From Cyanidioschyzon merolae (Eukaryota): 64,000 nt of DNA. The notes under the pieces are model-generated. The model saw nothing but the letters and a program-made list of their open reading frames with translations, did not search any database and was not told the origin of the DNA. Of this stretch, positions 1 through 34,577 are shown piece after piece. The stretch lies in NCBI GenBank assembly GCA_000091205.1, contig AP006490.2. The stretch is one strand, 5' to 3'. How positions within the stretch are numbered: position 1 is the first letter of the stretch; the number at the start of each line of letters is the position of its first letter. A program made the translations under genes and the position numbers.

Positions 1-1345
1 CCCCCATTCTCCATCATCCTCATATTTTTATCTTTCTTGTATATCGAATTATCTTTCTGTATTTACCGCTTTTTATTAAAGATTTTTTGTTCCATTTTTT
101 TCTATATCTTGGTTTTTAGATTGCAGAATAGATCAGTGCCGGGCGTTGCTATTATAACGGATTTCGATTTTGGTACAGCTTCTTAGGTATAAGGCAGGGT
201 TTTTTTAAAGAATGTGCTCTAATCTACGTAGTAATTGGAGCCAAGCTCTGCCTGCATTTTCATAGCACCTTTTTGCATGACTCTTTTGTCACCCTGCTTT
301 GTCTCCTTAATAATAGAGTACTTTCCGGCATGCTCCTTATATCAACTCTTTTGGCTCTCTTCTTTCTAAATGATATTAGACCAAAAATTTACCATGTTAT
401 AAATCGTTGCTCTGTACTTATTAGCACCCGTTCTAGTCTTTATATCGACTATGATTTGGATGCTTTTTCTAGGGGCGAATCCTTTTCTGTAATTTTTCAT
501 GGGATTAATCATATTTCTGTTTTCATGTCTTAGATGTAGTTTATTCTTGATTATCACTCTCGCTCGTTTTCTCTTCGTGTTTTCTCTCCATGTTAGGTTC
601 GCTGTCTTGTACCTCTAATTGTACGCCTTTGCTTTTTTTTGTGGGCATCATCATACCTTACGAGGTTCTAATCGGCAATTTTCATATGTTTACACTTTTG
701 ATAGTGAATCTTTCCTTTATCGTTCCTGTGCTTGAGAGGAAATCTCGAGCCGCTATAAACCAATTTTGGCTTTTTCCGCCCAGCGAAAATCTGGTTAACG
801 TATCATATACTGTAGCAATTCTCCCGCGACTTGAGCGAGTGTATCCCATTTGGGGTACAGGGTGCTTCCCTCCGATCGAATCTCGATTGCGCGCAAATCC
901 GTTCATGAGCATATCCACATACGAAACCGATAATCTCTCACTTCGAGCATATTTCGACGGATGCCTTTGGCACCTGAGAGCACCCATGGAATTCTCAACG
1001 ATCCATGCACCTGTAGAGTTGATCGCATCTTTTTCAATCGGACCGCCTCGGATGCTGTAGCCACGGTTGGTTCTTTTCTCCAGTTCATTTTTTTGACGAC
1101 AAATGTTTCTGACTGGATTTCTCTTTTGCGGAAATCCTCTCTCTGCAAGGCACTCCGCCTTCCCTATTGGTGCTAAGATTTCGTTCTTGGTCCGCATATC
1201 AAAACAGCCTCCCCCTGGATCTTTTTCGGTTCGGAGAATCCTACTACGAATAATACTCGTAAAAAAAGTCGCAAAGTGTCTGCAAGGCATCTCAGAGTTG
1301 GTCTCCAGTATCAGCTCTCCCCCTTCTTTGCTTCGCAGCGCATTC

Positions 1346-2954
1346 TTAGCAGGCAACAGCTATAGCATTCACGCGACTATCTTTCAGAATACGTGCTGCA
1401 CTTGTCCATACGCGGTACAGTCCTTCTGCATATGGCATGATACCTTCCGTGCTGTCAGAGCCGAGCGCTGATCCCCATATCTTGCGCAAAAGTTCAACCC
1501 GCGCAGGCCACAATACAGCATGTGCCACAGTGTGCGATGCATAGGTCCCGTAGCAACTAACAAGAATTCCGTCTACCACAAGGCGCCCTGAGCGCGTCAG
1601 CGGCGCATAGAGGCCATCACTCGTAACGAGAGTGTCAATTGCCACCACGGGGTCCGGCAGGTGCGCAGCAATGTCGAATAAGGCGTCGCCTATGCGGATA
1701 TCTTCTGCGAAAACCGCTTCACCTACAGACGTCTCCAGTTCGAGGATCTTCTGTATGTGCTGCTCTTTCTCATGTGAAAGACTCGACACAGCTGTCATTT
1801 TGCGGCCCGGGACTCTCGGGTTCTCGTTCATCCGGTACACCAGATGCTGCCTCGTCAAGCGCAGCTCCTTCCCCGAACGCGTCTTGATCAATAGGATTTC
1901 TGCTGTGGCGCGAGTCTCTTTGTGCAACCACCCCAGAACTGTGTCCTCGACCAGTCGCCCACGTGAATCGACGCCGATTACGGTCATACCCGGGCGCAAT
2001 TCGCTTATCCGCCGCGTCTTGCCAAGACCATCAATAAGCACCGAAGCACCCGCTGGGAAGCAGACCGCAGCGCCGCCACCCACAGAAACCTGTGTAACAT
2101 TTGCTGTCGGTGAAGGCGTCACTGAGACGGTAGGCGTAGGCGTTGCTGAAGTTGTCGGTGTTGGTGTCGGTGTCGGTGTAGGTGTGGGTGTGGGTGTTGG
2201 CACAACTTTCGGAGTCGAGATCGCCACGAGACTCGCTCCACTTGGCAGGATACTTGGAACGCTACTTGTAAAATTGGTAGAGATCTTCGTCACGTTGGAT
2301 ACGAGCGCGGTAGGTGCTAAGATAGAGATATTGTAGCTTGCATTCACTGCTGATGTTGCGCTGAATACACGTTGAACGTCGAGGCTGCTTCTCTCGTACC
2401 AGTCGGCGAACCGCGAGGCTATTGACACGAAGATACTATCGCAGTTATCCGACACAGTGACGTTCGCTCCAGTTCCATTCAGCTTGGTTTCTAAGTTATC
2501 CTGGAGAACGACCGCAACATCAACACACACGGTCTTGTTCACCACACTGACCACCGCAGAGAATGCAACACCGGCTATTGCCGGGGTAGGCGTAGGTGAC
2601 GGTGTTGCCGTCGGCGTAGGTGTTGGTGTAGGTGTCGCAGTTGGCGTTGGTGTCGGTGTCGCAGTTGGTGTTGGCGTCGGTGTAGGTGTCGGTGTCGCGG
2701 TTGTCGTAGGCGTAGGCGTTGGTGTTGCAGTTGGTGTAGGTGTCGGTGTAGGTGTCGCGGTTGCCGTAGGCGTAGGCGTTGGTGTTGCAGTTGGTGTAGG
2801 TGTCGGTGTAGGTGTCGGCGTTGCAGTTGGCGTAGGCGTTGGTGTCGCAGTTGGCGTAGGTGTTGGTGTCGGCGTTGCAGTTGGCGTAGGCGTTGGTGTC
2901 GGTGTCGGTGTCGCAGTTGGCGTAGGCGTAGGCGTTGGTGTCGCAGTTGGCGTT

Positions 2955-2989
<35 letters not shown>

Positions 2990-4909
2990 TGCAGTTGGCG
3001 TAGGCGTAGGAGTTGCAGTCGGTGTTGCAGTTGGTGTCGCAGTTGGTGTTGCCGTCGGCGTAGGCGTAGGCGTAGGCGTTGGTGTCACAGTTGGCGTTGG
3101 TGTTGCAGTTGCCGTAGGCGTTGGCGTAGATGTTGGTGTCGGTGTCGCGGTTGCCGTAGGCGTAGGCGTTGGTGTTGCAGTTGGTGTAGGTGTCGGTGTA
3201 GGTGTCGGCGTTGCAGTTGGCGTAGGCGTTGGTGTTGCAGTTTGCGTTGGTGTCCGAGTCGGTGTCGGTGTAGGTGTCGGTGTTGCAGTTGGCGTAGGTG
3301 TAGGCGTTGGTGTCCCAGTTGGCGTTGGTGTCGGCGTTGCCGTCGGCGTAGGCATAGGCGTTCGTGTCGCAGTTGGCGTCGGTGTAGGTGTCGCAGTTGG
3401 CGTCGGTGTAGGTGTCGGCGTTGCAGTTGGCGTAGGCGTTGGTGTCGGTGTTGCAGTTGGCGTAGGCGTAGGCGATGGTGTCGCAGTAGGCGTCGGTGTC
3501 GGTGTTGCGGTCGGCCTAGGCGTAGGTGTTGGTGTTGCCGCCGGTGTCGGTGTAGCGGTCGGCGTAGGCGTCGGTGTTGCGATGTATAATGTGAAGAGGT
3601 CGTTAAGGGGACCTGTGCCGCCTTCGCCTCCGAACAGCACCGGGTCGTTTTGACCGGTATTCCAAAGAACTGCATCAGCTCGCGGAGGTGGAAGCGTTGT
3701 ATTGCTTGTCTTGTTAAGCTCGCCGTAACTATAGGCTCCATCCGTTGTATTGTCACCGTCTACCCAAGTCCATTCAAGACTCGTAATATTGAACGTCCAC
3801 AGGTCGTTGCAGAAACCGGATGAATAACCACCGAAGAGATACAGAGTATTTGACGAGTCTACAAATCCAGAGGAAAAGGATCTGTACCCCGGAGTGTTAC
3901 TCGATGACGGCACTCCTTTCTCGCCGTATACCGACCCATTCGAACCAACACTGTCATTTCCAGACATCCAAGTCCATTCTCTGGAGCTGATATTGTACAG
4001 CCATAAATCATTGAGACCGCCAAATGTTTCAATCTGTCCGAAACCTCCAAAGAGCCAAAAGTTCCCATCAAGGTCTCGCCACGATGTGGCTCCGTAACGT
4101 CCCGCGGGATAATTGCTCGGCGATGCCTGGCGAAACGCACCATAGCTTCCGGAGGGGTCCAGCTCTTGGGTGCCACCTATCCAGCTCCATTCGTTGGTCA
4201 CTGTGTTGTACTGCCACAAGTCACCGTAAACAGTTCCATTAGGACCAGATCCACCAAAGAGATAAAACTGGTCATCCAAGCCAACCCAGGTCGCCGGTTG
4301 GTAACGACCGCCAGGCGTGTTGCTTGAAGACGACTTCCCAAGAGGACCATATGTCGGGGAAACGTTGGTCTCGTTGGATCCCTGCACCCATGTCCACTCG
4401 CCCGACGATACATTATACATCCACATATCACTATAGCCCGAGCTCAAATTACGGCCTCCAAATAGCCAAAGGTTTCCGTTGCTGTCACTCCATGCAGCGG
4501 ATTGCGTCCTCGAAGGCGGATTGTTGCTTTTGTTGGGAACTCCGAGGTAGCCGTATACCCCTGCAGAGTTGAGGGATGCCGAGCCTCCAACCCAGGTCCA
4601 AGAGAACGTGCTCAGATTGTAGTTCCAGAGATCACCGAAGACGCCGTCCGAGTTGCCACCACCAAACAACCAGAGCACTCCGTCAGCGCCGGTCCAGAAG
4701 GCCGCACCGTACCGCGCCGGAGGCACGTTGCTGGTGTTCGGCACACCCTGAACACCGTAGCTACCTGAACTGCCGGTAGAGTTACTGCCACCGATCCAGG
4801 TCCATAAAAAAGTATCTTCGGAGGACAAAACTCCACGAACTGCGTGCGTTCCCGACACAACCAATACTATAACGAGGAGTTTCAATATAGAAAAATATCT
4901 TTTTCGCAT
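1346..4909 (-). CDS. Secreted multidomain protein: signal peptide, six kelch blades, a roughly 330-aa Pro/Thr linker, a roughly 125-aa N-glycosylation-rich domain of unknown fold, a second PT linker, and a C-terminal hedgehog-type Hint/Hog autoprocessing domain
   Basis: The ORF 1346..4954 starts at GTG. The first ATG at 4907-4909 gives [23 protein letters not shown], which is signal-peptide-like. Six repeats of the kelch/galactose-oxidase type follow, e.g. [33 protein letters not shown], each with W..W and YG..G signatures. The C terminus reads [43 protein letters not shown] ... [21 protein letters not shown], which aligns with the hedgehog Hint module (CFPG...LSPGDRVLA...[21 protein letters not shown]). 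Confidence 0.8.
2570..3595. repeat. Imperfect hexanucleotide/dodecanucleotide tandem array, (GGYGTNGGYGTN)n on the + strand, which encodes the (TPTPTA)n linker on the - strand; a shorter copy lies at about 2090-2225
   Basis: The ggcgtaggtgttggtgtcggtgt-type unit is visibly reiterated for about 1 kb. The translation is an almost pure T/P/A tract. Confidence 0.85.
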
Positions 4910-5707
4910 ATAGGATACGAAAGGGGTTCTGCACCAGTGAAAAGAAAGCGCCACTGAGAGAAACGAGTTGCTTAGAATCTCCAGGGATAGGAGAGACTCC
5001 AGCTGCTGGTACTGTTGTCACTGCTGTCTCCGTCCTTACCACCACCACTCTCAACGAAGTATTCTGAGGTAAGCAGCACGGGAGCGCGTCAAGCACCGCC
5101 TTCTGAATGATGCAGATCTGCGCACGGCGCTCCCGAAACGGGACATTTCTGGCATAAACGGACAAAGATATTTTGCAGCGTCTTCTACCGAGTTTCATGA
5201 TGGCGCTCTCGTAATGGCAGTACAAGATAGCAGTCTACGCCGCAGTCGTGTTTCAGATACACATGCAGAGTCCAAATATCGAAAAAGGCTAATGGCGTGC
5301 CCGTCGCACATTCGGACCCGGCCCGCTATGACGCAGTACGAACAACTCCCTCTTACTGCACGCCATCTGCATATTTGTTGGCATCCCGTCTAGGGGGAAG
5401 TTTGGTGTCCAGATACCCTCAACATTGGATTATGGGCCGCCAACCCGGACTGGAAGGTTGCGTGCATGCACGTGCGAACTATATTACACAACTAAGATCC
5501 TCATGGAATCAATATACCAATAACTGAAACATAATTTAGTTCTGTGTTCGCGCGCGGGGCCGTACGGATAGCTGGCGTCAACGCAGTGGTTCATACTGAA
5601 GCACTTGCTGAGGCACGCGTCGAGGTCGACACCAATACCGACGCACCTGGAGACGCAGTTGCAGTCGCAATAACGGCACTCGGAGTCGGCGTAGGTCTAA
5701 TCAACAA

Positions 5708-7036
5708 TCACTCGTTGCTGATGCACTCCTGATCAGAGCGGCAGCAACGCACCTTGTTCACAAGGTTATCCGAAGCGATCAGGTATGTCCCGCACTGCTT
5801 CGTAGGGTCCTTGCACACACAGAACGACGGCAGCAGCGCCTGTTGTTGCTGCTGTTGTTGCAATTGCTGCTGCTGCTGCTGGTTGTTGTTGTTGCTGAAG
5901 GGGTTGTACGTGCAGTTCTGCGTCCTGGCGTTGCAGCACTCGGGCCCGCATGGAATATACGTCGAGTTCGATACGTTCCCGGTCGTGCTGCTCAGCGAGT
6001 TCGAGATGTACCCATACGCCTGACACACGTGCTCAGTAACCGGCTGGAAGCACTCGTTGCCGAGCTCCAGGCAGCAACCAGCCTCCAGACACTGCTGCGG
6101 TGAGTAGCTCATGCGCAGCGTCCCGTGCTGCTCTCCGTACACGAGCGTGTTCAGCAGACGCACAAACTGGCTACTGTTGATGTTATTGTTGGTCAGCTGC
6201 TGGTTCTGATTCAGCGCGTTCGTGCACGGCTGGCGCTCAAACTCGCCCACCGCGCACGTCTTCTCGGGCTGGAAGCAGTACGGGTTCGACGCAAAGTCGC
6301 TCTGCTGCTTGCCGTTCTGCACCCACTGGTTCTGCGCCTGCGAGTCGTAGCAGCAGCCCTGGGCATAGTAGGTAAACTGGTTGATACCCGCGTTGCCGTA
6401 CGGCTGGTGATGCGCTCCCGGTGACGGGCAGACGGGAACCGTTGCCTGCACCTCCTGCAGCGCTACAGAAGCCTGCGGTGCATGGTTGATGTCGTAGTAG
6501 CACCAGGGTGCCAGGATGCCGTTCGCTGTGGGCTGCCAGCAGCATCCCGGTATCGCAGAGCACTCGTCGGGGTAGATATAGCTCCAGCCGCAGGGGACGC
6601 GCTGCGTCACTGGAACAGCGCTGCACGCCGATGAGACGCTCTTCAGGGTGCACGCGTTCGTCTGGGAGCTGAAGCAGCACCCGACTTGCTCGCAGCGTCC
6701 TGGTTGATGCACTGTCCTGGAGATCCGCAGAGCTCATTGGAGCAATGGGGTGGGTGTCCGCGTAGGTTTCGGTGTTGGAGTAGGAAATGCTTTCCTCAAC
6801 GCATAGACATCATTGATAAAGTCACTGCCGCTCGTGTTTATGTATCCATTTCCAACAAATACGATCGGATCAGTCCTACTAGTGTCCCAGAAAGCTGATC
6901 CATAGCGAGTACTTGGTACACTATTCGGGCCTGACTCGCTCAATGCCCCATATACTGCTAGAGTATTCACTACCGAGCTTCCATTAATCCATGCCCGTTG
7001 ACCCAGTTTGATATCGAATACCCACAGATTGTTCAA
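5708..7036 (-). CDS. Paralog of the kelch/PT-linker family: one kelch blade, a PT linker, then trefoil(P-type)-like cysteine-rich modules and a poly-Q/N tract. The frame is interrupted by a single in-frame TGA at about 6734-6736, so this is a possible pseudogene, a read-through, or an assembly error
   Basis: ORFs 6734..7036 and 5708..6712 share one frame: ...PTPKPTRTPTPLLQ * ALRISRTV HQPGRCEQVGCC.... The segment NNLWVFDIKLGQRAWINGSS...RYGSAFWDTSRTDPIVFVGNGY...NDVYAL...PTPTPKPTRTPTP aligns with the last kelch blade plus linker of the upstream gene. CSAVPVTQRVPCGWSYIYPDECSAIPGCCWQPTANGILAPWCYY fits the trefoil pattern C..R..CG...C...GCC[FWY]...PWC[FY]. Two more GCC[YL] modules follow. A possible signal peptide (MKRTEVVIDIAIAMTYFV) is out of frame at 7033..7239. 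Confidence 0.5.
5838..5895. repeat. CAG/CAA (CTG/TTG on +) trinucleotide tract encoding NNNNQQQQQQLQQQQQQQ
   Basis: The sequence ctgttgttgctgctgttgttgcaattgctgctgctgctgctggttgttgttgttg is visible on the + strand. Confidence 0.85.
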
Positions 7037-7382
7037 ACGTCTGCAAGTTCGCCTCTATTGCCGTATCCTTTATGGCAAAAAGAGTTACAGATTACCCAAA
7101 TAAACGCGCTCTGCCCTCTTGAACGACCACAGTTAGCAGTCTCTGGCGCATTCGATACGAAGTAGGTCATAGCTATAGCTATATCAATCACTACTTCAGT
7201 ACGCTTCATGACTTGCGAAGCAATTTTGGTTCTCCACATCAGGAGGAGTGCCCACCCATCCGTTCAATATCCGATCGTGACTGTGGGATGCCGTCTCATC
7301 GGTACGCTGTTGCTCCCACATTTGTCTTTGAAGCAGCGGTCTGCGCTTTGAAGGCGCATCTCATTTTCATCACTAACAAACC

Positions 7383-8488
7383 TTAGACAGGGGCCAAGAT
7401 AGTCGACTTGAGGCCTCGCCTCCGTAACGCCTGGTCGATCAGATCAAGACTCAGTTCGTAAAGCTGATCTGCCTTGTCGATTTCGTACGTTGGTTCAATA
7501 ACCTGCGGTTTCGTCTTCTCTCGACCTTCGGTATATTTGCCACGCCACTGATAATACGAGCCCGAGTCCGAGAACTGTCCCTGGGTCGCCACTTCGGCTA
7601 CGCGGCGGCCGGCCTCGTCATTCGGAAGGTATTGCCGAGTGATATACTTTTGAAGAATCGGAAAGAATACGTACCGGAACCAGCCACGCTTTTCGCGGAA
7701 GAGGTTGCTGTCGGCGACACATCCCGGAAAATCGCCACAGAGGTCACCCCGTCGCGGCCGTATCAATGACCGAGCGTCTTCATTGATAAAACGTTCGCGG
7801 CTTTGGCGTCTTTGAAAGCTGTTGTGGGCTCAAACGGGCCACTGTCCACCATGCCCGTCGTCTGCGGACCGAGCCCCGCGGCTAGACCAGATAAATCCCC
7901 GAGACGGGCCTGCGGGAGGATCTTTCCCGGCAGCGAATTCGGCGAGTGGGTCTGAGTCGTCAGAAACACAATGTGCCTGCGCGATATTTTCATCTTCGGC
8001 AACAGCTCCCGACATAGAAGCAAATGGCTCAGATGGCATACCTGCATGGTTTTCTCGATGCCGTCCACCGTGAAACGCGGTTTCTTGTCCCGCGGATGCC
8101 ATATTGTGGCATTGCAGATCAGGGTATCCAGGTGATCGACGCGCGCCACACTTGACAGCTCTCTTACAAACTTCAACACAGAGGCGAAATCAGCCATATC
8201 ACAATGCAGCACGGTATAGGCGTCCTTTAGAAGGTTTACGCTGTTTGCTGCGCGCTCCGCCCGGTCGACGTCACGACATGCCATGACGATGTGCCAGTTG
8301 CCCTTGTTGATCAGAGCGTGAGCTGCATACAGACCGACTCCAGCGGACGCGCCAGTGATCACAGCGATCTGTGATTGCTTCGGGCCCATACGAAGATGCA
8401 GCGCGTGGTGCCGGCGCGCCCCAGGCAAACGCAGCACTACCAAGGCAGCAGATGCTGGCAATGGCGACGATGTCCCGCTGCGAAGCAC
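7383..8488 (-). CDS. POR: Light-dependent NADPH:protochlorophyllide oxidoreductase (LPOR) homolog. Its reading frame is broken by a 1-nt frameshift at about 7763-7766 and it lacks an ATG-initiated transit peptide, so it may be a pseudogene or an assembly error
   Basis: The 5' ORF 7763..8488 carries IAVITGASAGVGLYAAHAL, GNWHIVMACRD, AYTVLHCDMADF, LICNATIWHP, CHLSHLLLCRELL, LGDLSGLAAGLG and FKDAKAANVLSMK. These match the POR motifs KWHVIMACRD, DSYTVMHLDLAS, LVCNAAVY, LGDLRGLAGGL and YKDSKVCNMLTM. The 3' ORF 7383..7766, in another frame, continues with GDFPGCVADSNLFREKRGWFRYVFFPILQKYITRQYLPNDEAGRRVAEVATQ, which matches [47 protein letters not shown]. The first in-frame ATG, at 8387-8389, sits directly at the Rossmann fold. 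Confidence 0.75.
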
Positions 8489-10347
8489 CCGTCAGGTGCG
8501 GTACGCAGCAGGAACGGTGCTCGAGTTGAAGCGGGCGTACAAAGAACGTGCCAGTCCATTTGCAGGGGACAAGAAACGAGCAGGGCTTGCGTTTTCTAGA
8601 TTTGATTTTTTTCCGGTGCGAAGGCTGCCAATGACCTCAACAACAATACAAATTCGCTTAAGCATGCGTATCCATTCAAAAACCTCTTTTGCGTAGCTGC
8701 ACGAGTGATCGTCCGTCCATTGATGCAGATGCCAACCTCAATCTCCCGTAGACTGTCTAACTTTGAGCACAACCCACACAATCGCCGAATGTCCTTTTCA
8801 GAAACTAGGCAAGACTCCCATTTTTCTCGAGCAACAACCTCGTCAGTGCTAGTCGCTAAGCGCTCCGCAGTGCTACGCTCAAAGAATACGAAGTTCGCAG
8901 ATGAACTTCGACAGAGCTCGCCAACGGATACCGTAGAGGAGGTATAAGGGAATTTCCTCCGGTGGTATGTTATTTATGGAAGCGCCTGCACGTCAGTTGG
9001 ACACGTGATGTGTAGGGCGGGTCGCTCGCCACTACTGTGGAAGGCCGGCGACAACGTTTTTCTTTTCAAAGGCATTTGTTGTTGACTGTGTCGCTTCCGG
9101 GCTCGATGGACGGGTTAGGCTCCTCAAACTAACCTTATAGAGTAGATCAAAATGCAGTATGTCCTTTTGTCGGGTTCCTCGATCGTTCCAGGCTAGATGC
9201 AAGTCTCAAGCTTCGTGGAAGATATGGACGCAACATGTGTGCTATGCCTCTGCCAAGATCACCAGAGCTAATCGACGTAGCGGGAGCCAGAAGTTAGACA
9301 AAGACGGTAGCATGGCAATGACTTGAGCTCTCATCAGTGCCAGCCCATGACGTACGACAGAGGCACAATTCAGGTCAGTTCCGTATTCCAGTGTCCGTGC
9401 ATGATGCATAGCAAGCCTGGGGAATAAACGTATATCCATGTTCGAGAACACTACCGTGCCTATTTTGGTTACGATCAATACAACTGAAGAAACTCTTATT
9501 GAGTAGAATATTGCATACCTTATCCACACAAGTCTAAGCCGCAGAGAAAGATACGCTTTTGATATGAGCATCGCGGGGTTTCGTGCCAGGCCCTGCATCT
9601 CCACGTATGTCAGGGCGGTACTGCGATGGGCAGTAGCGTCGGCTCCAGCGAGAGAGCCTACAGCAAGAGATCGTTCTACGTGAGTTTGCGATCTACGATA
9701 CTTTATGTTTTGCGGCAGTGCGATGCGAACACGCATGTGCCAAGGCGGGGTGTCGGACACGTGTCCTTCATCTACCTGAGTAGCGTCGCGCGCAGTGGAT
9801 GCATTGCGCTAAATGAGCGCAACTGGGTGATCAGGCAGTCAACTGACACGATGCGCATGCCGTTGTTGAAGGGAAACGCGATCTCGATCAGAAGCGTGTT
9901 GTTCAGCTGCAAAAAGTTGGATTTCCGTTGAGGACATAGCAAAGTGTAGTTTTCTGTTCGTTTTTGTTTCAGCCCTCGAACAAGTCTAGTCAAGTATTTT
10001 TTCGGAGTATATAACAGAAGCGTTCAAAGAGCGTTGTTTTTCAAAAAAAAACTAAAAAAAGGAACCTATGAAAAAACAAGTAGACGATCCTGGAGGCCCA
10101 GGGTCGTCGGCTGCTAGAAAAAAACAAAAAACATTGCCGAGCCCAGAAGAAAAGGAGGATGACAAGGACCGAAGGGGGTAGGTCCTACGTCGAAGGCGGC
10201 AAGAGAGACAACAATACAACGAGATGGTAGTAAAAAACCTGTCGTCTTGGACATATTAAGGATCCGTATAGGGAAAACTTACATGTCGCTATCAAAAAAC
10301 GTGTTGCGTCATACTCCAAGAGTATTGTCAAGGCGCCGTCTGGACTC

Positions 10348-12440
10348 ATGCATTTGGTGACGGAGATGTATCGCGACGTTACGAACATCGTAACGGTCGA
10401 GATTCCGGACGAGTTTTTCGACAAGACCTTTTTTTTTCGTCACATGATGCACGGTACAGGGGAGGCGCGGAAGGAAAATGTGCTAGTAGATGCCTTTCAC
10501 GAAAAGCATCCCTTTTACAGATTCGAGGGTACTCGGCACAAAGGTGACCGGGATATTTACACATACAGGCCGATAAAGTACCTCACGAATCTGAAGAACC
10601 ATTTCAGAGTGAATCTCGAACGTTTCATGATCTGCGCCGTGTTTGCACTCTATCCGGGCCTATCTCGCAATGCAAAATGGACGATGATCAATGGCATCAC
10701 GAACGATCGAAACTATGGAAATGGGATCGAATTCGTCGGAGAGAAGGCATCAAACGAAAGCGCGAGCGAAGCTTCCGTAATCCGTGCGGTTATAGAAGAG
10801 CACCGTGCGGTACTGTGGTTGGCGAATCCAAGAGACAAGATATCAGAGTTGAAAAAAGATAAGGAAAGATACTTTCGCCTCGTCCTGCGCTACTTTGTGT
10901 TTCTGGACCGAGAACTTGAACGCAAAGCGGAGATGAAGCTGATTGAGGAAAAAAATGAAGAGTGGGAGAGACGGAAGGCTATCCTTATGGGGAAGCGCTT
11001 CAACGTGGTTCTAATGAGCAACATCAAGTCACATTTTGTTACTATTGACTCCGGCGTCCTTCACGGCATCATGCAGGAGATCAGTCCCGAATTCAATGAT
11101 AGTATGGACGACTTCACCGGTGAAAACCGGGAGACGTACTGGAAGAGTAACTTCCAGTACAAACGTCTCAAAGTCAGCAAGCAAAAGGTATTCACTGGGA
11201 TGATCGAATCAGATGGAGTAGCCTTGTGTGTACACTATCGGCGGTTGAAGAAAGATCGGCCAGTCCCTTTCTCGGCTGCGCCCGTCACGAAGGATGAAGA
11301 AATGGAGGAGACTGGTCTTGCGACGCAGAAAGTGCAGGATAATGTCTTTCTCGTTGACGCGGCGAAGGTGGAGAGGAGAAGGAGGCGGAACTTACGACGC
11401 AGGAGGTGGAGGATAACGACCTCGTCGTTGGCGTGACAAAGGATGAAGATGAGAAGGAGGCGGATCCTGTGACGCAGGAGATTGAGGGGCACGAACTTGT
11501 CGTGGACGTGACGATGGATGGAGATGAGAAAGAGGCGGGTTCTTCGACACAGAAAGTGCAGGATAACGACTTTGTCGTTCGCGCGGACCCTGGGAACCCA
11601 ATTATCATAACCATCGCTCTACCCAAGCGTGCGGAAGATTGTAACGACTGTAACTTGCGTCAGAAAGACATGCGTCTGTTGAGATTCTCGAGAGCAAGAT
11701 ACTATCGAAAATCCGGTATAATGAATGCTAGGAAGAAAATTGAGACGTGGAATTCATGAATGAAAGAGCACCTGGGAGCTATGTGCGAGGTGACGAGTCG
11801 CGTAGCGGACTTGGAAGCTTTTCGGAAATTCGTGGAAGTTCGTGTTGCCCATTGGGATGCACTGTGGGAGGAGTATACAAAGCCCCGGTGCGCTCGTCCG
11901 CAAATGAATCTATACGGCGGAAGGCAGCTGGCGTTTGCCAACTTTTTCAATCAGTTGGGCGCCTTCAAAAAGGACAAGAGTCAAAGACTAGTAGTAGCGT
12001 ACGGAGCAGTGCGCTGGGCGCCCAAGAAAGGCACTACGCCAGCTCTAACGACAAGAACGTACAAGGAGTGCGCAAGGCGTTTTGTTCCAATACCTGTAGA
12101 TAAGTTTCGAACATCGTATACACACCATGAACTGGGGTGTACACTTGAGAGAGTGGAGATGGAAAAGTGCCAACGGAGTCCTGAGAATAAAACAAAGTAC
12201 GGACCGCTGACGGAGGAGGAAATGGAAAGGAGGGCAAAAGTGCGAGGATTGCTTGCACTGGTGAGTACATCCAGTGATTGCAAGAAACGTATGGAGTTTA
12301 GTAACCGAGACTTTAATGCCACTATCAATATATTAGGAGATGTGCGATGCTGGAGAAGAGACCTCCAGAATAGTCAAGATGGAACTTTATTGGACAATCC
12401 TGCAAAGCCGCGCTATATGAGAAATAGTTGGAAGCACTAG
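10348..12440 (+). CDS. TnpB/Fanzor-like RuvC-fold nuclease gene (OrfB_Zn_ribbon type). It is disrupted by one frameshift at about 11360 and one in-frame TGA at 11757-11759
   Basis: Three ORFs make up the gene: 10348..11436 (a genuine ATG start), 11406..11759 and 11760..12440. The C-terminal part has [21 protein letters not shown]...C...C, which matches the TnpB V..VdP.yTSq.C..CG box. It ends with [12 protein letters not shown], matching the RuvC-III D[RA]DxNAAxNI motif. The N-terminal part has a RuvC-I-like [12 protein letters not shown]. The protein is about 690 aa if joined. Confidence 0.65.
11285..11600 (+). repeat. Four tandem copies of an 81-bp unit encoding a 27-aa acidic repeat ([VT]xDE[ED]xxEAGxxTQKVQDNxF[LV]V[DR]A) inside the Fanzor-like gene
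   Basis: The four copies are [50 protein letters not shown] (in a shifted frame), [25 protein letters not shown] and [25 protein letters not shown]. The frameshift lies between copies 1 and 2. Confidence 0.8.
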
Positions 12441-12628
12441 TAGGTGGCCGGTCCAAGAATACTGGGAGGCGTCTGCACATCAGTTCAGGACGCTATGTTT
12501 AGGGCGCGATTGCTGCCACTACTGTATTCCGGTGACGTCGTTCGACTTTTAAACGGCGTTCGCAGCCGCTTCGGTCTAAGCGTGTGAATATAATTCCCCT
12601 GGGAAGCGCCAGTTGTGGACACTTGCAG

Positions 12629-14008
12629 ATGGCAGGGTCACGAGCGAGCAACCTGAAACAAACCCGCGAAAAGCGCCAGCGCGCTGTTGCGTCTGCTTCT
12701 GCTGCCGCTGCTGTCCGCTGGGAAAGCATCGATGCGGCACTCTGCGAGCAACGGGCAACAGCGGTCACTCGTAGCCTGATCTGGGCCTACCTTATTCTCG
12801 CTGTGGTACTCGTTGTGTTCCCTGCCCTCTATACGCACGCGGAGGATAGTGGCCTGCTCTCCAGTGCGCCGCGGCTATTCGCCATGGCCGCAACAGCGAT
12901 CACGCTCGTCAACATGCTACTTGTTTCAACCAGCGTCGTCTTCATCGGGGCACGCGTGTCTGCAGCACGTGATCGGCTTCGCCGGTGGGCTCTCGAGCAA
13001 TCCCGTACCCGAGCGGGCGCGGACGACTCAGAATCGGTGGCGGCTGCGTTGGCAGCGCTCGAGCGCGAAGTCATCGGAAGAGGCGACGCGCTGCGGTTCC
13101 CCCTGGTCGCTTCACTTGGCCTGATAGCACTCTTCATGGCCATTCGGTACCTGCCGCAAAACGTTGTGCAGCTGCTCATCGGGATGTACGTTGCTCTAGC
13201 CTCGCTGGTCTCGATGACGAGTATCCTCTCGCCGCTGCTGGACCTGCTGGAGCACCGATTGCGGCAATCGCCGCGCACCAAACCGTTGGGGATGCTCATG
13301 GCGCGGCGGTTTGGACTTTTCAGGGATACGCTCTCGGTACACGGTCGAGATGTGCTGGGCATGGTGCTCGCGCTGCCGCTTCTCTACTGGTATCGGCAGT
13401 CGAGCGGTCTCGGCGCTGCGATCCTGAACAATATTTTTGCGGCAAGCCTGGGAGTTGCGGGCATCGACCTATTGGCCATTGGTGACTTTCAGACGGCTGT
13501 CGTGCTGCTTGTCGGCCTTTTCCTCTACGATATTTTCTGGGTCTTTGGCAGCGAGGCCGTCTTCGGCGACAACGTGATGGTATCGGTCGCGCGCGGCATC
13601 GACGGTCCCTTCAAATTCGTCTTCTACCGTCTGCGAGCGCGCCCTGATGCAGCGCGCGATATGTCGATGCTAGGACTTGGTGACCTGGTGATTCCCGGAC
13701 TCTTTGTGGCCCTGATGTTGCGCTTTGACCACCGTCATTTGGCGAAACCTTCACTGGCGCCCAAGCATCCCTATTTTTCTGCTACATACATGGCCTATGC
13801 ACTGGGTATGGTGACAACGTTCGTAGCGATGGCGGTGTCGAAGGCGGCGCAACCTGCGCTGCTTTACCTGGTACCGTTCTGCCTGGTGGCACCGCTGATG
13901 CGAGCCTGGCGCCTGGGCGAGCTGCGCTCGCTCTGGTATTACCGCGAACACGATGCGGAGCTTGATTCGCATCGCGAGCCGCACCAGTCGTCATGCAACG
14001 ATACCTAG
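12629..14008 (+). CDS. Signal peptide peptidase (presenilin-type intramembrane aspartyl protease, SPP/HM13 family)
   Basis: YDIFWVFGS carries the YD motif, MLGLGDLVIPGLFVALMLRFD carries GxGD, and QPALLYLVP carries PAL. There are multiple TM helices. The ORF track start at 12584 is GTG; the first ATG is at 12629. Confidence 0.85.
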   Translation: MAGSRASNLKQTREKRQRAVASASAAAAVRWESIDAALCEQRATAVTRSLIWAYLILAVVLVVFPALYTHAEDSGLLSSAPRLFAMAATAITLVNMLLVSTSVVFIGARVSAARDRLRRWALEQSRTRAGADDSESVAAALAALEREVIGRGDALRFPLVASLGLIALFMAIRYLPQNVVQLLIGMYVALASLVSMTSILSPLLDLLEHRLRQSPRTKPLGMLMARRFGLFRDTLSVHGRDVLGMVLALPLLYWYRQSSGLGAAILNNIFAASLGVAGIDLLAIGDFQTAVVLLVGLFLYDIFWVFGSEAVFGDNVMVSVARGIDGPFKFVFYRLRARPDAARDMSMLGLGDLVIPGLFVALMLRFDHRHLAKPSLAPKHPYFSATYMAYALGMVTTFVAMAVSKAAQPALLYLVPFCLVAPLMRAWRLGELRSLWYYREHDAELDSHREPHQSSCNDT

Positions 14009-15633: not shown

Positions 15634-17841
15634 TCATTCGGGGGTGTCGCCCTGCCAAAGAGCTACGGCGCGTCCAGCTATGTTTCGAACGAGGTGGTCA
15701 CGAATCCAACCCTCCATTCGGGGATACGGAACTAGTTTCGCAATATCTCCCACGAATCCATACAAGAGCAATGTTCTTGCTTCATCTCTGGAAGCTCCTC
15801 TTGACTGCAAGTAAAACAGTTCGACCTCGTCCAAATGGGCAGAGGCAGCACCATGGGTGCAGGACACATCGTCATTCAGAACCTCTAGGAACGGCATGAC
15901 GTGCACACGAGAACCATCGCTCAGAAGCAGACTCCGGATTAACTGATGCGCATTGGTGCCGTCCGCCTCTCGCTCCACGTACACTGTCCCTCGGTAGACT
16001 GCAGTGCTTCGGTCGACAACCACATTCTTGTGAAGTTGATTCGACTCACACTGAGCGACATGATGACTGACTCGAACCTGCACATCGCCAAGAGCTCGAT
16101 CCTGAAGCAAGGTCAGGCCGTTGACGTTACAAGAGGCCCGGCGGCCAACTAGATCAACGCCCATGACAAGCCGCCGCAACGCCAAAGAATCCACATTCAG
16201 ATTGGTCGCGGTGAACGAGGTTCCTTGCTCGCAACGAACTGACAGACCAGTCATGTGGTAGAAACGATGTTGGTCCTGACGGACCGACTCCGATACGGAT
16301 TGCGAGCCAATAATACTCAATTTCAGGCACGCATCGGTCTCCAGATGCACGTTGACACACTCATTCAGGAATGTGGCATCGTTTGGCTGCTGGGGCGCTT
16401 CAGGAGACGTGGCCCCTAGCGCAACAAGCCGAAAGGATACGGACGCCATTGCGCCGCGGTCGAGAAAGATTACAGTTCGAGGATTCACAGCGACGCCGGC
16501 GTCGACTACCTGGATGATTTCCATGGGGCGATCAATCGTACACCCCGGTGGCAGGTATACCACGAAAACGCCATCCCCGTCGCCAGACATTCCTAGATAC
16601 ACGTTCAAAAGGGTGAAAAAATCGTTCACCTTGGCGATGCCACTCGAATAATCGTGTGTCCGGGGCTCTTCACGAAACGGAACGACACCCAGGCCTGCTT
16701 CAGGCGGCGCGGTTCGAATGACCGATACGATGCGTTCCTGAAGTGCGCCGTCAGTGCACTCCTTGAGGTTGCCGACGTAACCTTGTTGAAGCGACGACGT
16801 GTCGCGAATCTGGGCGAGAGAGCTCAGTTCCTGAACAAGCCGGCCGTTCAGTAAAACAAATCTCAAGGGTTCCGTTTCCGAACCTTGGGTCGGCGTTCCG
16901 CACACTTGCTCCGCACGGTGAAGGGCATCACGTAGCCGCTCGAGCTGTGCGCTTGTGTACGGCTCCCGAGGCGTTCGCAGCCTAAAGTCTGTCTCTAGCA
17001 GCTCTCTGATATCGGTGAAGCGCCAGGTCTCCATCTTCCGATGCGGCAGGCGCTTCTCAGCTGCGGCACTCCCGAGACGCGCAAGTGCTATATCGCGCAA
17101 AGAGGCACAGCAGCCTGAAGTGATGTCGCTGGGTGGCGCCTGCGCCAGCAGTCTCTCCATGAAAGAGGAACTCCTCCAAAGGCGCATCGCCTGCACTACA
17201 GCAGAGAGTTCTTCCTCAACACTCTGACTGCGGGGCTGCATACCGCCAACATCCGAACCGTTCATGTCGAGCCTCGCTGAGCGTCTGACCTGCGCGGATC
17301 GACAGCGACTCCCAGCGCGTCGCTGATGAGCGCAGCTACCAACAACGGTAGCGTTCCAGCCACCTCGGAAGGCGCCAACGCGTCCTCCTGGAACAACAAA
17401 GGCAGACAGTTTGTTCTCTCTTGCCTCGATCGTAAGCATTTTATCCCCAACTAGCGCCTTGCGCAACAGTACCAAACCACGAAGAGCGCTGAAATAGTTG
17501 CACAGCCCGCGGCAGGCCCGGGGTATGCGCGTGCCCCCGGCCTGGTGGCTGCCAATCGCTGGCGGATCGCCGTTTGATCGCCGCCGTCGCTGCCACTGCA
17601 GGCACGCTGTGCGGGATGCGGCGCAGGCGCTGTGGCGCGCCTCCCACGCGTGCCATCGATCCTGCGGTGCGCTATAGGCGCTGCTGTTGCTGCCGCTTGC
17701 GGCAGGCTCGGCACACGATAGGACGTATGAAACGACCAGAATATCCGAGATGAAGTATAGGTAATGTAACTCGGAGGTAGGGTGTTTGATAGATACCTCG
17801 TCGCGCTCTGAAAAACCCAAAAAGAAAAGAAAAATGCGCAT
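15634..17841 (-). CDS. sufD: Fe-S cluster assembly protein SufD (SUF system, plastid-type) with a roughly 200-aa N-terminal extension
   Basis: The C-terminal region LIRSLLLSDGSRVHVMPFLEVLNDDVSCTHGAASAHLDEVELFYLQSRGASRDEARTLLLYGF matches the conserved SufB/SufD signature (LLLSD..A...P.LEI..DDVKCSHGAT.G.LDEE.LFYL.SRGI...A..LL..GF). The SufD-like N-terminal region includes LPHRKMETWRFTDI. The ATG at 17839-17841 gives MRIFLFFLGFS. Confidence 0.8.
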   Translation of the reverse strand: MRIFLFFLGFSERDEVSIKHPTSELHYLYFISDILVVSYVLSCAEPAASGSNSSAYSAPQDRWHAWEARHSACAASRTACLQWQRRRRSNGDPPAIGSHQAGGTRIPRACRGLCNYFSALRGLVLLRKALVGDKMLTIEARENKLSAFVVPGGRVGAFRGGWNATVVGSCAHQRRAGSRCRSAQVRRSARLDMNGSDVGGMQPRSQSVEEELSAVVQAMRLWRSSSFMERLLAQAPPSDITSGCCASLRDIALARLGSAAAEKRLPHRKMETWRFTDIRELLETDFRLRTPREPYTSAQLERLRDALHRAEQVCGTPTQGSETEPLRFVLLNGRLVQELSSLAQIRDTSSLQQGYVGNLKECTDGALQERIVSVIRTAPPEAGLGVVPFREEPRTHDYSSGIAKVNDFFTLLNVYLGMSGDGDGVFVVYLPPGCTIDRPMEIIQVVDAGVAVNPRTVIFLDRGAMASVSFRLVALGATSPEAPQQPNDATFLNECVNVHLETDACLKLSIIGSQSVSESVRQDQHRFYHMTGLSVRCEQGTSFTATNLNVDSLALRRLVMGVDLVGRRASCNVNGLTLLQDRALGDVQVRVSHHVAQCESNQLHKNVVVDRSTAVYRGTVYVEREADGTNAHQLIRSLLLSDGSRVHVMPFLEVLNDDVSCTHGAASAHLDEVELFYLQSRGASRDEARTLLLYGFVGDIAKLVPYPRMEGWIRDHLVRNIAGRAVALWQGDTPE

Positions 17842-20800
17842 AATCGGAGAACGCTGGCCTAAGTAAAGGTTTTGTCAATGAAAAAAATCGATCCTGCGGT
17901 TGGCATCGGTGGCGCTGCTGCCCTTGAGATGCTAGACGTCGTCCAGTTTGCGCATCGCTGTTGTTGCTGGCTCGAGTGGGATCTCATATGGCCTGTCTCA
18001 TTGCGTAGGGCATCTGGGTCCGGCAAATTTTGAATTTCGTGGGATCAGGTACACAAATCACCTGTTTGCTGCTACTGGGACTGCGATAAAGCAAGCGGAA
18101 AGACGTGATTCCCTGATGCACAAGTGCTGCTTCCAGAAACGCTGCGATGGGAATCGAACATTTCTCCTGAGCCGCTCGCATACCCAGGTGCGGTTCATTG
18201 GTTGTTTTGAACATATAAACGTCCTGATTCGACAGGTTGAGGGTACAGCGCAGGCGTGCAAAGCGCTCGCTTAGAGCGTGCACGCAAACCGGACACGCAT
18301 GCGAGATGAGACGGAATGGCAGTGCGCGCTCCAGGGCGTAGCGCGTTCCGCGCTCTAAAGATGCACACTCGGAGGTTCTCGCGAAAGACTGCTCCTGGAA
18401 TGCCTCCGAGTGCCACCGTATCGAAACTACTGCCATCACGGGAAGCGCCGTCCACGATTGTTGCGCGAAACGGATACGTCAGACCATTGCCCACACGTGC
18501 TACTCAAGAGTACCTCAAGACTCTGCCTAATCGTCGAGAAGCTATCGGTGCCTCTTGAGAGCCCGTCTTTCAGGGTCGAATGTTCAAGATCCGAGCTTTA
18601 CAAGCTGCTCTGCATTTTGTGGTGTCTCCACACGCATCGGAAAGGATTTGGAGTACGTGGGTGTGTGCTTCAGGATCCAGAGCACCGCCTCCTGCGACCG
18701 AGTTTCGTCCAACATCAGCGAGCTCACCGAGCGCAGATGCTGCCGCCGCCATCTCAGAAGAGCGACTGTCATCGACAATCTACACGTAAGCTGCTTGCGG
18801 CACAACGGAATCATCGATCTGTGTCTTTTGTGGTAGCCCGCAAGTGCACGAGAAAGCCGTGCTGTCTCTGAACAGCGACGCTGGCTGCGCAGATGGCACC
18901 GTAGAACGCAATTGTGACCAACCTCGCACCCAGACCGTCCGCGAACGCATATCTCCAACCTGTGTCCCTCAAGGTTGGGCGGCTCCAGGGTCCACGGTGA
19001 ATTGCTTCTTCGTCCGGCGGACTGCGCTCTCTCCCAGGGCTTGCTGTCGTACTCGTGCATCCGCGGGAGTCTGACCAAAATCATCGATCATAGACGATTA
19101 CAAATCGAGCGGTCGCCATCGTTGGCGAGGAAATCGCTTGGCGCTTTGTTTTGATCGACGGATCGTGTACATTGGCCCAGGGATCTCCATCTTCGCAATG
19201 CTGATCGGCGTCTTGGAGAGCTTCCATCACTTCATACCTGATGCAAGACCTACATGAGATATCGAGTACACGCACAGACCGGACACGGCCTCGATGCAGC
19301 CACCAATCCACAGCTACTTCGAGAGGTGGCATAACTCCGTGGCTCGGTATCCAATTTGGAGGCGTTTGTTTGGTACACAGGACGTGTTTGTCGACCAGGG
19401 ATCTCGGATAGCAAGATGGATATCGGCGTACCGGGCAGAGTCCATGATTCAGCAACTGACCTCCAAGTTCTACCAGCCACTACCAATACTATCATCCCGA
19501 GGAATTACTGGTCATTCCGTATGCTCCAGAGATTGCTGAGCCTGCCGTGAACACCCCCGATGGCACAAAATAGCGCCTATGCCGACACCGCATCGAGACA
19601 CTGCGGGTTCATCACACCAGTGAGGGCGCCGGCTCGACGCGAGGTTCAAGCGACACGAGGGCGGAACTAGCCGGTGTTCTGGTATCCAGCAGAATGCACA
19701 AAGAGACCTACTGCGTCCAACAGCGCCAGGTAGTATGCCAGGAGACCATCAAGACCAGGGCGACAGCTAGAAGCAGCCTACTCACTTCTAGCCCCAGAAA
19801 AAAAGGCCTTGAGGTCGAGCTGCTCAGGTAGGGCCACGGCAGCCGCCACCGGAGGGCACATGAAACGTGCGGCACGAGCCTGGGAGAATCGTACAGCTCG
19901 CGGGACCTTCTTCTTGCAGGGTAATCTCCCGATTACGCGGAAATATTTTCCCGTGCTCACTGGGTGTGGCGAAGCGAGAAGAAGCAGTTAAGTGGATGCA
20001 AGTTTTTTGGATGTATTCTATCATGTTTTCTGTTCTCGCTGATGAGCGCCTCGAGTGCCTCTCATTCGAAGCTACGGTACGTTCGCGATAGGAGCAGTAG
20101 CGCTCGCGGCGTTGGTCTTCTTCACCAATGCATGTCTAATTGTTTGAAATGGCTATAGCGGTACACAGCATTCGTCACCGCTTGCGAGGCGTTGGCGTGA
20201 TTACATGGCATACCGTGGACTGCCCTGTACTTCAACGCTGTTGTCTACCACATCCATGTGAGAATGGTACAGGGCGGCTTCCCGAAGCACGGGCAGGCAT
20301 CCTGAAAGTTCTCCTCTCTTTCCATTGCCATCAACACCAGGATTTGCAGCCCTTTTTACTTCTTTCTTTTCTCCTCTCTTACCTGCGGCTTTTTCTCTGC
20401 AGATCCCTACCGTCGCTCCAGTTACGTTTTCAATACTCGAAAGCAGTTGATTCCAGCGTAACATTCCCGATGACGCTGCGCAGACTGTTCCTCAAGCATG
20501 TCATGGCAGGCAAGCGTCGCAATGTACACTGTGCTTGAAATTCTTATCACCTTCGCTTACAGCCTTAACGTGTTTTTCGCATCTACGAAACTTGGCTGTG
20601 ATTAGGGTCGCCGCTAAGCTCGCTGCTCCGTCTTTACCGGGCCCTGTCCTGCGGCGCGTGGGCGCTTGCGTTACTGCTCCAGACTTGTCTTCGACGAAGA
20701 CAGAAAACTCGCTTTTGTGCTCTTTTCTTTACTGGGAGAAGTGAAGGACCCCACGTTACCGATTCTCTTTTGGGAGATAGCCTCAGCGAGTACGCGACCC

Positions 20801-32079: not shown

Positions 32080-32495
32080 AAATTTGACTGTGTTTCTTTC
32101 GTCAAATAAAACAATCCGCACGAAGAACAGTTCCTGTTCTCTTTATGGCTATCGAAGGGACCGCGTTCTATAGCAACATGATATCTTTCAAAGGATACGT
32201 TCGCAGAGGCTACCGTTCTATTTGGACTGTGTTTCTTTCGTCAAATAAAACAATCCGCACGAAGAACAGTTCCTGTTCTCTTTATGGCTATCGAAGGGAC
32301 CGCGTTCTATAGCAACATGATATCTTTCAAAGGATACGTTCGCAGATGCTACCACTCTTTTTGGACTGAGTTTCTTTCGTCAAATAAAACAATCCGTACG
32401 AAGAACATTTCCTGTTCTCTTTATGAGTATCGAAGGGACCGCGTTCCACAGCAGCACGGTATCTTTCAAAGGATACGTTCGCAGAGGCTGTCGCT
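32080..32495. repeat. Tandem satellite-like repeat, three copies of a roughly 132-137 bp unit
   Basis: The unit gactgtgtttctttcgtcaaataaaacaatccgcacgaagaacagttcctgttctctttatggctatcgaagggaccgcgttctatagcaacatgatatctttcaaaggatacgttcgcagaggc recurs at about 32086, 32223 and 32355 with a few substitutions. Confidence 0.85.
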
Positions 32496-34577
32496 CTTTC
32501 TGTTTACATGGAAAAGCGTATCGGGCACGGATTTGAGTCAAAGCAGCGATCGCTGCCAGCGGAGAGAGCGTAAACGCTTCGCACGAAGGCAACGTAGATG
32601 GATCGAAATCTCTCCGCATGTTCTTCAGCGTGGATCGCCTTCCAGGACTCGTTTCGTCGTGGATTGCATTGCGTTCGACAAATCCTATGTCGAATGGAAT
32701 AGCGTGCGTTTGCGCTTGCACTTGCGGCGGACACAGTACTAGCCGTTGTGATCGTGAAGAGAGCAGGCAGCGGACACTGGGTACGGCGCCGGGCGGGAAA
32801 CATTGGAGTGCACCGCGAGGAGCCCTCTTTACCCGCCGAAGGCATGTACCGAGCAGTGAAGAAAACGTTGATGCGCCACGGGCTGCCCCTGGAGTGGAAG
32901 GCGCGCTAGACGTATAGAGACTCTCTTCTACATCCAAGAGTGTTCATTGCGAAAAGCTTTCCACTGCTGCATACAAAGAAAATGACCACGGTAAGCGATA
33001 CGTTGGTCGCGACTACTCTCTATGTATCAAATGCATCGACAACTGCGGAAACCGCAAAATCATGACTTTAAAACTGCCATCTACATCCTTCCACTGCTGA
33101 TCACGGGGCCGGAAGGAAAAGACAGATCATCGTATTCAGAGCCGGAGGTAAGAGACAGGCAAGTATGCAGGAGTGGGAAAGCCCGCAAGTACTGGTGCTG
33201 ACGACATTAAGAGCAGGCCCAAACTTTAGAGTCCACACTCGTGTTAGGCAAGTGGACCTCTTGCATGACAGCCGGGCACGGGTGTAACAATATGTCCGAA
33301 GAATCCACAGGCGCTCACGAATGAACCAGACCTGTCTGGATTGTATGCCCATCCGAATCGCATGCTTCCTCCGTCGAATGTGTGATCAGCTCGACTTGCC
33401 CGTCAGGTGCATCCTTCAGGGCACTCATGCTCGGCTGGTGTCGTTCGTCGGAAGCAAGCTAGATGCTGTTCGTGGACGAACGCTGCGACGCCCACCTTGC
33501 CGGGTCGGAACGCGACTCAAACGATGCACACCCGTCAGCTCCGATACGTTCCAAGACAGTCTCGCATGTGCATCAAGTGTTTTGCTTAGACGCCCTTCTT
33601 CGCCTTCGTCGCGTGCGGTCATTTGTTCCTTCCTCCGCCTCGAGGCTCGGTACAGGTTTCACACGAACCTCTTTCAACACCGGTTCATGGAGCGCTTCCG
33701 TATCCCCGGCTGCGGTGCCAAGTGCCTCCGTGGGTTTCTCTTGAAGCTGATGAACGTGCTCTGCATTTCGAGAAAACTCGACTCGCTTCTGCGGCAAAAG
33801 CCGTTCGGCTGCGCGCAGTCGTTGGCGGAAGTACAACCACGTACCAGCGAGAAGCAACACCGTCACCCCGTACGATAGCCATACTTCGGGGTACGCTCGA
33901 GTGATGTCAAACACACCGATTCGTGTTGACTCAGGCTCGTTACTCGGATAGCTTGAAGGCTCTGCGTCAAGCGGTGTGGCGCCCCGCTCTAGCGTTGTCG
34001 CAGCTCCAGTGCGGGTCTCAAGGGGGCTACAAAAAATGAGCCCCTGCCCTAGAGCGAACTTTTTCACAGTACAGCCGGCTTCGTACATATACGACCAGAG
34101 CGACATGGCCTCGATCATTAACTTACGAAAAGGTCACCAGACCCTATCCATATCTTCGCTCGTAACCAGCCAAGTGGGTGCGTTCTGCGAAAGCGTTTGT
34201 CACTGGCGGGCAGCATCATCGAAAGCGCCGCTGTGGCGTCGTGGCTTGCAAGTCCTGTTAGTGTCTTTCAACTCAGTATGTGCAAGCACCACCCCTGTGG
34301 TGTACAGTAAGAGATCGAAATCACGATGCAATGTACCGCATAGATCGTAGAAGAACTGCGTGTTGGATATCTATTCTTTACTGAACAGTGACGGAGGACT
34401 GCATTCTCCTCTGAGGTCAGTTACACTACAGCATTCAGGTGGTTGAGGACCACTGAAAGAAAGAAGCATACGCGCTCCGCATCATAAACCGATATTCTTA
34501 ATGAATGCATGCTACCAGTCGTAGAAAACGACCGACTGATCACTTTGCGTTAGGCGAAAGCGGCGATAATAGACACC

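Follow-up and report, generated by a model that had tools for sequence, protein, structure and literature searches.

Chromosome ends of Cyanidioschyzon merolae and the analysed window

In the red alga Cyanidioschyzon merolae homologous elements of up to 20 kb adjoin the telomeres, and they carry the genes T (trefoil factor), P (NADPH:protochlorophyllide oxidoreductase) and H (hedgehog protein) (Nozaki et al. 2007, PMC1955436). 'PH elements' are found at eight chromosome ends, 8L among them (PMC1955436). For the start of chromosome 8 a subtelomere ranging from 9 to 12537 has been tabulated with the content 'H,<T,P>,SPP', where the angle brackets denote a pseudogenized gene, so that the trefoil gene and the POR gene are both published as pseudogenized there (Cho et al. 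2023, PMC9812998 Suppl. Dataset 5). In the same dataset four of the subtelomeric POR genes of C. merolae are intact (4E, 7E, 10S, 14E) and ten are pseudogenized; an earlier count gave three por genes (Hunsperger et al., PMC4337275 Table 2). As the plastid genome of C. merolae has no chlL, chlN or chlB (PMC4337275 Table 2; PMC8003979 Table 3), the alga depends on the light-dependent protochlorophyllide reductase (LPOR).

The DNA examined here, called the window, is one stretch of 64,000 nucleotides which contains a damaged LPOR gene about 8 kb from its first base. The surroundings of this gene are made up of the following features.

1-8, plus strand: telomere repeat unit CCCCCATT (AATGGGGGG on the other strand), its only occurrence in the 64 kb
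1346-4954, minus strand: Kelch + Hint open reading frame ('hedgehog protein', K+H) of 1202 codons, with Pfam matches to Kelch and Hint (PMC9812998 section 13)
3500-12560, no strand assigned: multi-copy subtelomeric block (about 9-12 kb); blastn against L009-L050 matches over 30 metagenome contigs at 80-93% identity
5708-6712, minus strand: trefoil-domain open reading frame (T), Cys-rich, with a long poly-Gln run (PF00088, E=6e-10)
12584-14008, plus strand: signal peptide peptidase (SPP), bordering the repeated block on its inner side (PF04258, E=1.5e-66)

A scan of all 64 kb found exactly one telomere unit, located at base 1 where the window starts. It is the repeat unit of Cyanidioschyzon and Cyanidiococcus telomeres (PMC1955436, PMC9812998 Suppl. 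Dataset 2), and the window probably starts at a chromosome end of which this one unit is visible. By blastn, unique sequence begins at about 12.53-12.56 kb. Comparison of the Pfam matches and reading frames with the published element (PMC1955436 Fig. 3 legend, PMC9812998) found the gene content and order of the H-T-P element in the window, namely Kelch + Hint, trefoil, POR and then SPP. Gene order, block length, the telomere unit and the published coordinates taken together make the left end of chromosome 8 of C. merolae, or of a very close relative, the most likely identity of the window.

The affiliation of the host can also be read from the remaining genes. The reading frames of the window are long and intron-less and encode, by Pfam, besides Kelch + Hint, trefoil and signal peptide peptidase, also SufBD, TBCC, a BCKDH E1-alpha subunit, adenosine deaminase and syntaxin. 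Since the BCKDH E1-alpha protein is 99% identical to a protein from a hot-spring-type metagenome, 84% identical to that of Cyanidiococcus yangmingshanensis and 54% identical to that of Galdieria, the host is a cyanidiophycean red alga from the Cyanidioschyzon/Cyanidiococcus group and the window a piece of its nuclear DNA. Exact-sequence searches with the adenosine deaminase, SufBD and SPP frames gave no identical record. Scans of the 64-kb window for tRNAs and for Rfam families found nothing.

Several further observations concern the neighbourhood of the gene. The Kelch + Hint frame is a member of the K/T/H subtelomeric family, and its Thr/Pro/Ala-rich linker is encoded by tandem repeats at 2582-3577 (about 1 kb, imperfect units of 6, 30, 54 and 60 nt). 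The trefoil frame has no ATG start and is listed from a GTG. Two more reading frames inside the repeated block, at 10348-11436 (plus strand, 362 aa) and 11760-12440 (plus strand, 226 aa), are 70-80% conserved in many paralogous contigs; in Pfam the first of them matches nothing, and a 75-nt unit repeated four times forms its end (tandem repeat 11283-11579). In an otherwise unique region, at 32086-32499, a unit of 139 nt occurs three times in tandem with 93% identity. The SufB/D-family frame (735 aa, 15634-17841, minus strand) is much longer than bacterial SufB or SufD, and is presumably a nuclear-encoded component of the plastid SUF system with a long N-terminal extension.

The LPOR gene and its five lesions

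Listing of the open reading frames yields two adjoining ones on the minus strand, 7763-8488 (241 aa, read from a GTG) and 7383-7766 (127 aa). The frame-repaired translation of the joined frames matched TIGR01289 with 280.9 bits (E=1.5e-83) over model positions 2-312 of 315, a score below the cut-off of 331.35 bits, so that the threshold of the curated family (equivalog) is not reached. Arabidopsis PORB (9tl6) was matched with E=7.9e-69 over query residues 9-318, and cyanobacterial LPOR structures with E values around 1e-61. Judged by these matches the LPOR homology of 7383-8592 is full length, unambiguous and far beyond chance, which bears out the likeness along the whole length that had been seen in a previous sequence-only reading of this DNA.

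The closest relatives found in protein searches are 70-96% identical and occur only in metagenome or SRA-derived assemblies; beyond this close group the next matches are florideophyte red-algal LPORs with about 52% identity. As a reference the best match was used, protein P0001 from locus L004, which has 403 aa, is 94% identical and intact, and carries an N-terminal extension of 68 residues. Lesions were mapped against this protein and the other copies by DNA alignment, a codon-level scan and tblastn. In tblastn, the intact protein aligned to the window in three segments lying in three different frames, with residues 2-50, 48-289 and 289-403. Relative to this reference the gene bears five lesions, which are given here together with its landmarks in the direction of reading.

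7383-8592, minus strand: LPOR pseudogene, whole, 1210 nt versus 1212 nt of the intact coding sequence, comprising the 68-codon transit-peptide region and the mature enzyme
8590-8592, minus strand: lost start codon, ATG changed to ACG (Thr), from DNA alignment and codon-level scan
8443-8444, minus strand: 1-nt deletion in the transit-peptide region, CTGCC-TTGG here versus CTGCCTTTGG in relatives, reference nt 149, frame -2 to -1
8387-8389, minus strand: ATG corresponding to Met69 (LRMGPKQSQ), a conserved internal residue in the intact P0001, from the alignment
7814-7816, minus strand: catalytic Tyr of the SDR YxxxK motif replaced by Phe (TTC; AYKDAK to AFKDAK), from alignments and codon-level scan
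7763-7765, minus strand: in-frame TGA for Arg277 (CGA in other copies), from DNA alignment and codon-level scan
7727-7728, minus strand: 1-nt deletion in a GATTTT(C/T)CCGGG run before the conserved Pro-Gly-Cys, reference nt 862, frame -1 to -3
7383-7385, minus strand: original stop codon TAA, the same in intact copies by DNA alignment

At the N-terminus MQALFVS of the reference has become TQALLVS, with Leu in place of the relatives' Phe5 in addition to the lost start. The ATG at 8389-8387 had been correctly located in the sequence-only reading as the first one, and it sits nine codons ahead of the ITGAS(S/A)GVG NADPH motif; the ancestral start was nevertheless at 8592-8590, where ACG is now found. 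The Ser/Ala/Arg-rich residues upstream, taken at that time for a transit peptide reachable from a GTG, turned out to be mostly the true transit-peptide sequence translated in a wrong frame.

The damage further downstream also differs from the single +1 frameshift which had been proposed. A frameshift does exist. What had been placed at 7763-7766 as the switch is an in-frame TGA at 7763-7765 where all relatives have Arg (CGA). After this stop the same frame stays homologous for 12 codons (YGRDGVTSVAIF), which are identical to the relatives and correspond to the GVTFASLY region of plant PORB, and only then does the frame change. The missing nucleotide lies in the TTTT(C/T)CC run at 7728/7727 and not near the GGGG run at 7747-7750, and its loss moved the last 113 homologous codons to another frame. 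As it destroys the Pro codon of the Pro-Gly-Cys sequence, GCVADS can be read only in another frame. The second deletion at 8444/8443, the ACG start and the Tyr to Phe change had all been overlooked.

Two ways of explaining the frame structure without damage were discarded. Against an intron at the frame switch stand the continuous homology across both switches and the near-absence of introns in the lineage; against use of TGA as a sense codon stand the reading frames of up to 1202 codons which are common in the window under a code with TGA as stop.

Loss of the catalytic tyrosine is a change of a different kind. All 11 of the LPORs compared with the window copy in a 12-sequence alignment have Tyr at this position; the Lys codon of YxxxK is retained (7802-7804, minus strand). 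In the same alignment the NADPH-binding Gly-rich motif (TGASSGxG) appears as ITGASAGVG, with its Gly residues kept and one nearly invariant Ser changed to Ala, and the window copy is the odd one out in many of the 30 nearly invariant columns. Such changes, read from the alignment blocks, are S84A, A163T, P226L, K258T, Y260F, T270S, R277stop and V323L. The LPOR-specific insertion (TQTHSPNSLPGKILPQARLGDLSGLAAGLGP) was found in the alignments of the pseudogene. The Tyr to Phe change (TAC to TTC) also occurs in the otherwise different copies L010, L018, L022 and L036, either inherited from before their duplication or spread by conversion.

From this copy LPOR can no longer be made. The description of the individual lesions comes from the present analysis; the published tables carry just the label 'pseudogenized'.

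Other copies of the gene and their decay

Scanning of JGI metagenome contigs with P0001 yielded 42 loci, 41 of them close and one (L037) only 52% identical. Each metagenome contains many distinct LPOR copies, nearly all of them no more than a few kb from the end of a contig, and on one contig of 76 kb the LPOR copy is cut off at both ends. Copies at contig ends are typical of a repeat at which assemblies break, and from these breaks the copies would be expected to lie at chromosome ends. Among the metagenome LPOR loci no telomere arrays turned up; the contigs break off while still in the repeat.

One intact LPOR was seen in a different setting. Protein P0007 (70% identical) is encoded by locus L001 in the middle of a gene-dense contig of 107.8 kb (ENA ERZ1300892, NODE_33; Rio Tinto study), flanked by genes for an ABC transporter and an Hc1-domain protein and away from the contig end. 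The subtelomeric location of LPOR may be specific to the Cyanidioschyzon/Cyanidiococcus group.

Three of the metagenome loci bear directly on the question whether the lesions are real. A contig from a different metagenome (L028) is 99% identical to the window copy and shows each of the five lesions. The contig of L039 comes from the same locus and matches the unique flank as far as window position 18589 at 98.7% identity; as far as this contig reaches into the gene, it shows the ACG start and the first deletion. The more divergent copy L043 shares the first two lesions, again up to its contig end. As independent metagenome contigs share them, the lesions are not assembly errors. A functional gene which starts at the GTG or in an upstream exon, and whose defects are sequencing or assembly errors in the form of miscounted homopolymers, is thus extremely improbable, even though both 1-nt deletions fall in short T/C runs as is typical for indel errors. 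Apart from the agreement between independently assembled contigs, the TGA, the ACG start and the Tyr to Phe change are substitutions, so that homopolymer errors cannot explain three of the five changes. An upstream exon is unlikely, as C. merolae has 27 introns and in the intact relatives the transit peptide shares one exon with the rest of the protein. The POR at this chromosome end has moreover been published as pseudogenized (PMC9812998). Of the two possibilities left by the sequence-only reading, a homopolymer error in the assembly with non-AUG initiation is therefore refuted, and decay of the gene is confirmed by five disabling changes that recur in contigs assembled independently.

About 15 distinct full-length LPOR types are found in related metagenomes, just two of them intact (L004 and L009/L012). 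The others are disabled by 13 different nonsense mutations together with several frameshifts. Of all copies L004, which is intact, is the nearest to every other one, a pattern consistent with a slowly evolving functional gene that was duplicated repeatedly and whose duplicates then decayed independently. Decay of the family driven by CpG sites or by methylation finds no support, as the 13 nonsense mutations are of mixed types with CGA to TGA accounting for only one.

Pairwise dN/dS values between the window copy and the intact copies range from 0.29 to 0.44. Such a value mixes the history before and after inactivation and is uninformative alone; being below 1, it means either that much of the divergence is older than the inactivation or that parts of the copy were homogenised through gene conversion by functional ones. 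Substitutions were therefore also counted by lineage, taking those unique to the window copy and L028 at sites where all other copies agree. This lineage has 19 non-synonymous and 7 synonymous substitutions, small numbers to be set against an estimated neutral site ratio of about 3:1, and the branch of the intact L004 has 1 non-synonymous and 3 synonymous. The substitutions of the window lineage would thus roughly fit neutral decay.

These data also bear on the proposal that recoding, by stop read-through and programmed ribosomal frameshifting, still yields a functional protein, or that a truncated product of 208 aa starting at Met69 has acquired a new non-catalytic role. An ATG-initiated frame of 208 codons does remain (8389-8387 to the TGA at 7765-7763), the N-terminal half with the Rossmann fold is intact in it, and the Tyr to Phe change is common to several copies. 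To make a full-length product, ribosomes would have to shift frame twice in the same direction and read through the stop, and the start codon, the transit peptide and the catalytic Tyr would still be missing, while the truncated product has neither plastid targeting nor the C-terminal third of the enzyme. In addition the lesions vary from copy to copy, as random decay predicts, and the lineage-specific substitutions of the window copy look neutral. With this weight of evidence against it, retained function in either form is scarcely credible, and an unconstrained pseudogene is the preferred reading.

Parts of the gene do not share the same degree of divergence. By tblastn, identity to the intact P0001 is 99% over the C-terminal 115 codons of the window copy and 89% over the middle part. 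The locus L018 (Ga0080006_1194895), compared with window positions 7461-8460, is the same locus with flanks about 99% identical and an LPOR body that is 8-10% divergent; its LPOR has no frameshifts and a different set of lesions, with stops at residues 305, 353 and 379. Either gene conversion between subtelomeric copies or chimeric assembly of the repeat gave rise to the pattern in L018. Because of the two identity levels within the window copy and the contrast of body and flanks in L018, exchange between dead and live copies is possible. That the dead copies are not inert and undergo ectopic gene conversion with the few functional subtelomeric LPOR genes is nonetheless an improbable proposition. 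If it were true, the dead copies would form a reservoir which diversifies, or at times damages or repairs, the sole protochlorophyllide reductase of an alga lacking DPOR.

Interpretation and comparison with known systems

All the evidence considered, the feature is very probably a duplicated, non-processed LPOR/POR pseudogene in a segmentally duplicated subtelomeric H-T-P element of C. merolae or a very close relative, most likely at the left end of chromosome 8. The H-T-P element was copied among chromosome ends by segmental duplication, and the surplus LPOR copies then lost constraint and decayed. Reduction of protochlorophyllide would be carried out by intact paralogs at other chromosome ends. 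The window copy itself is not expected to be expressed and would have no function of its own, apart from a possible part in ectopic recombination or gene conversion with other subtelomeres.

A different cause of the decay had been put forward as possible in the sequence-only reading, namely a DPOR-containing or secondarily non-photosynthetic lineage. On this view the organism's only LPOR would be decaying, DPOR having made it dispensable or photosynthesis having been given up. The window copy is indeed truly disabled, as this explanation would have it. The lineage is an obligately photosynthetic hot-spring alga, and the window contains the gene of 735 aa for SUF Fe-S assembly mentioned above, whose product is expected to be located in the plastid. 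Many paralogs exist and some of them are intact, as seen for L004, L009 and L012 in the metagenomes, and for C. merolae itself in the four intact POR genes alongside ten pseudogenized (PMC9812998) and in the count of three por genes (PMC4337275). The genes chlL, chlN and chlB, to which attention had been drawn in this connection, are absent from the C. merolae plastid genome (PMC4337275 Table 2; PMC8003979 Table 3). Loss of an only LPOR in a DPOR-containing or secondarily non-photosynthetic lineage is hence highly unlikely. It would be the existence of intact LPOR paralogs that left the window copy free to decay, and neither DPOR nor loss of photosynthesis.

As a consequence the LPOR remnant at this locus is no evidence on loss of photosynthesis or on the presence of DPOR. 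A decayed copy among many has already been described at C. merolae chromosome ends, and the mechanism is ordinary. In natural populations most subtelomeric LPOR copies are dead, though the enzyme is presumably essential given that the C. merolae plastid is without DPOR, and the LPOR copies constitute a tidy case of subtelomeric gene birth and death.

Compared with functional LPOR (TIGR01289; Arabidopsis PORB, 9tl6 and 7jk9; the Thermosynechococcus enzyme, 6l1h), the pseudogene belongs to the same sequence family at the level of the fold over its whole length. Still recognisable are TGASxGxG, the LPOR-specific insertion, the Lys of YxxxK, the cysteine codon of Pro-Gly-Cys and the C-terminal helix. 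It differs from the functional enzymes in the loss of the start codon, two frameshifts, one nonsense codon, the replacement of the catalytic Tyr by Phe and changes at several nearly invariant residues.

The closest counterparts are the '<P>' copies in the PH and H-T-P elements of C. merolae 10D. Their order counted from the telomere, K+H, trefoil, POR and SPP, is the same in the window, and the published subtelomere at the start of chromosome 8 (9-12537) and the block in the window both measure about 12.5 kb. In the published elements as in the window POR is disabled and the element is multi-copy with 80-93% identity; the single telomere unit CCCCCCATT at the start of the window suggests that its block, too, adjoins the telomere. 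Compared by gene order and coordinates, the window LPOR copy and the published '<P>' elements of 10D revealed no difference. A wider parallel exists to the STGD families of the Cyanidiophyceae, comprising the K/T/H genes, merA and arsM (PMC9812998), which share with the LPOR copies the spread by segmental copying between chromosome ends and the relaxed constraint. Those families have been discussed as adaptive amplifications (PMC9812998), whereas the LPOR of the window is a dead copy of a core gene of photosynthetic pigment synthesis.
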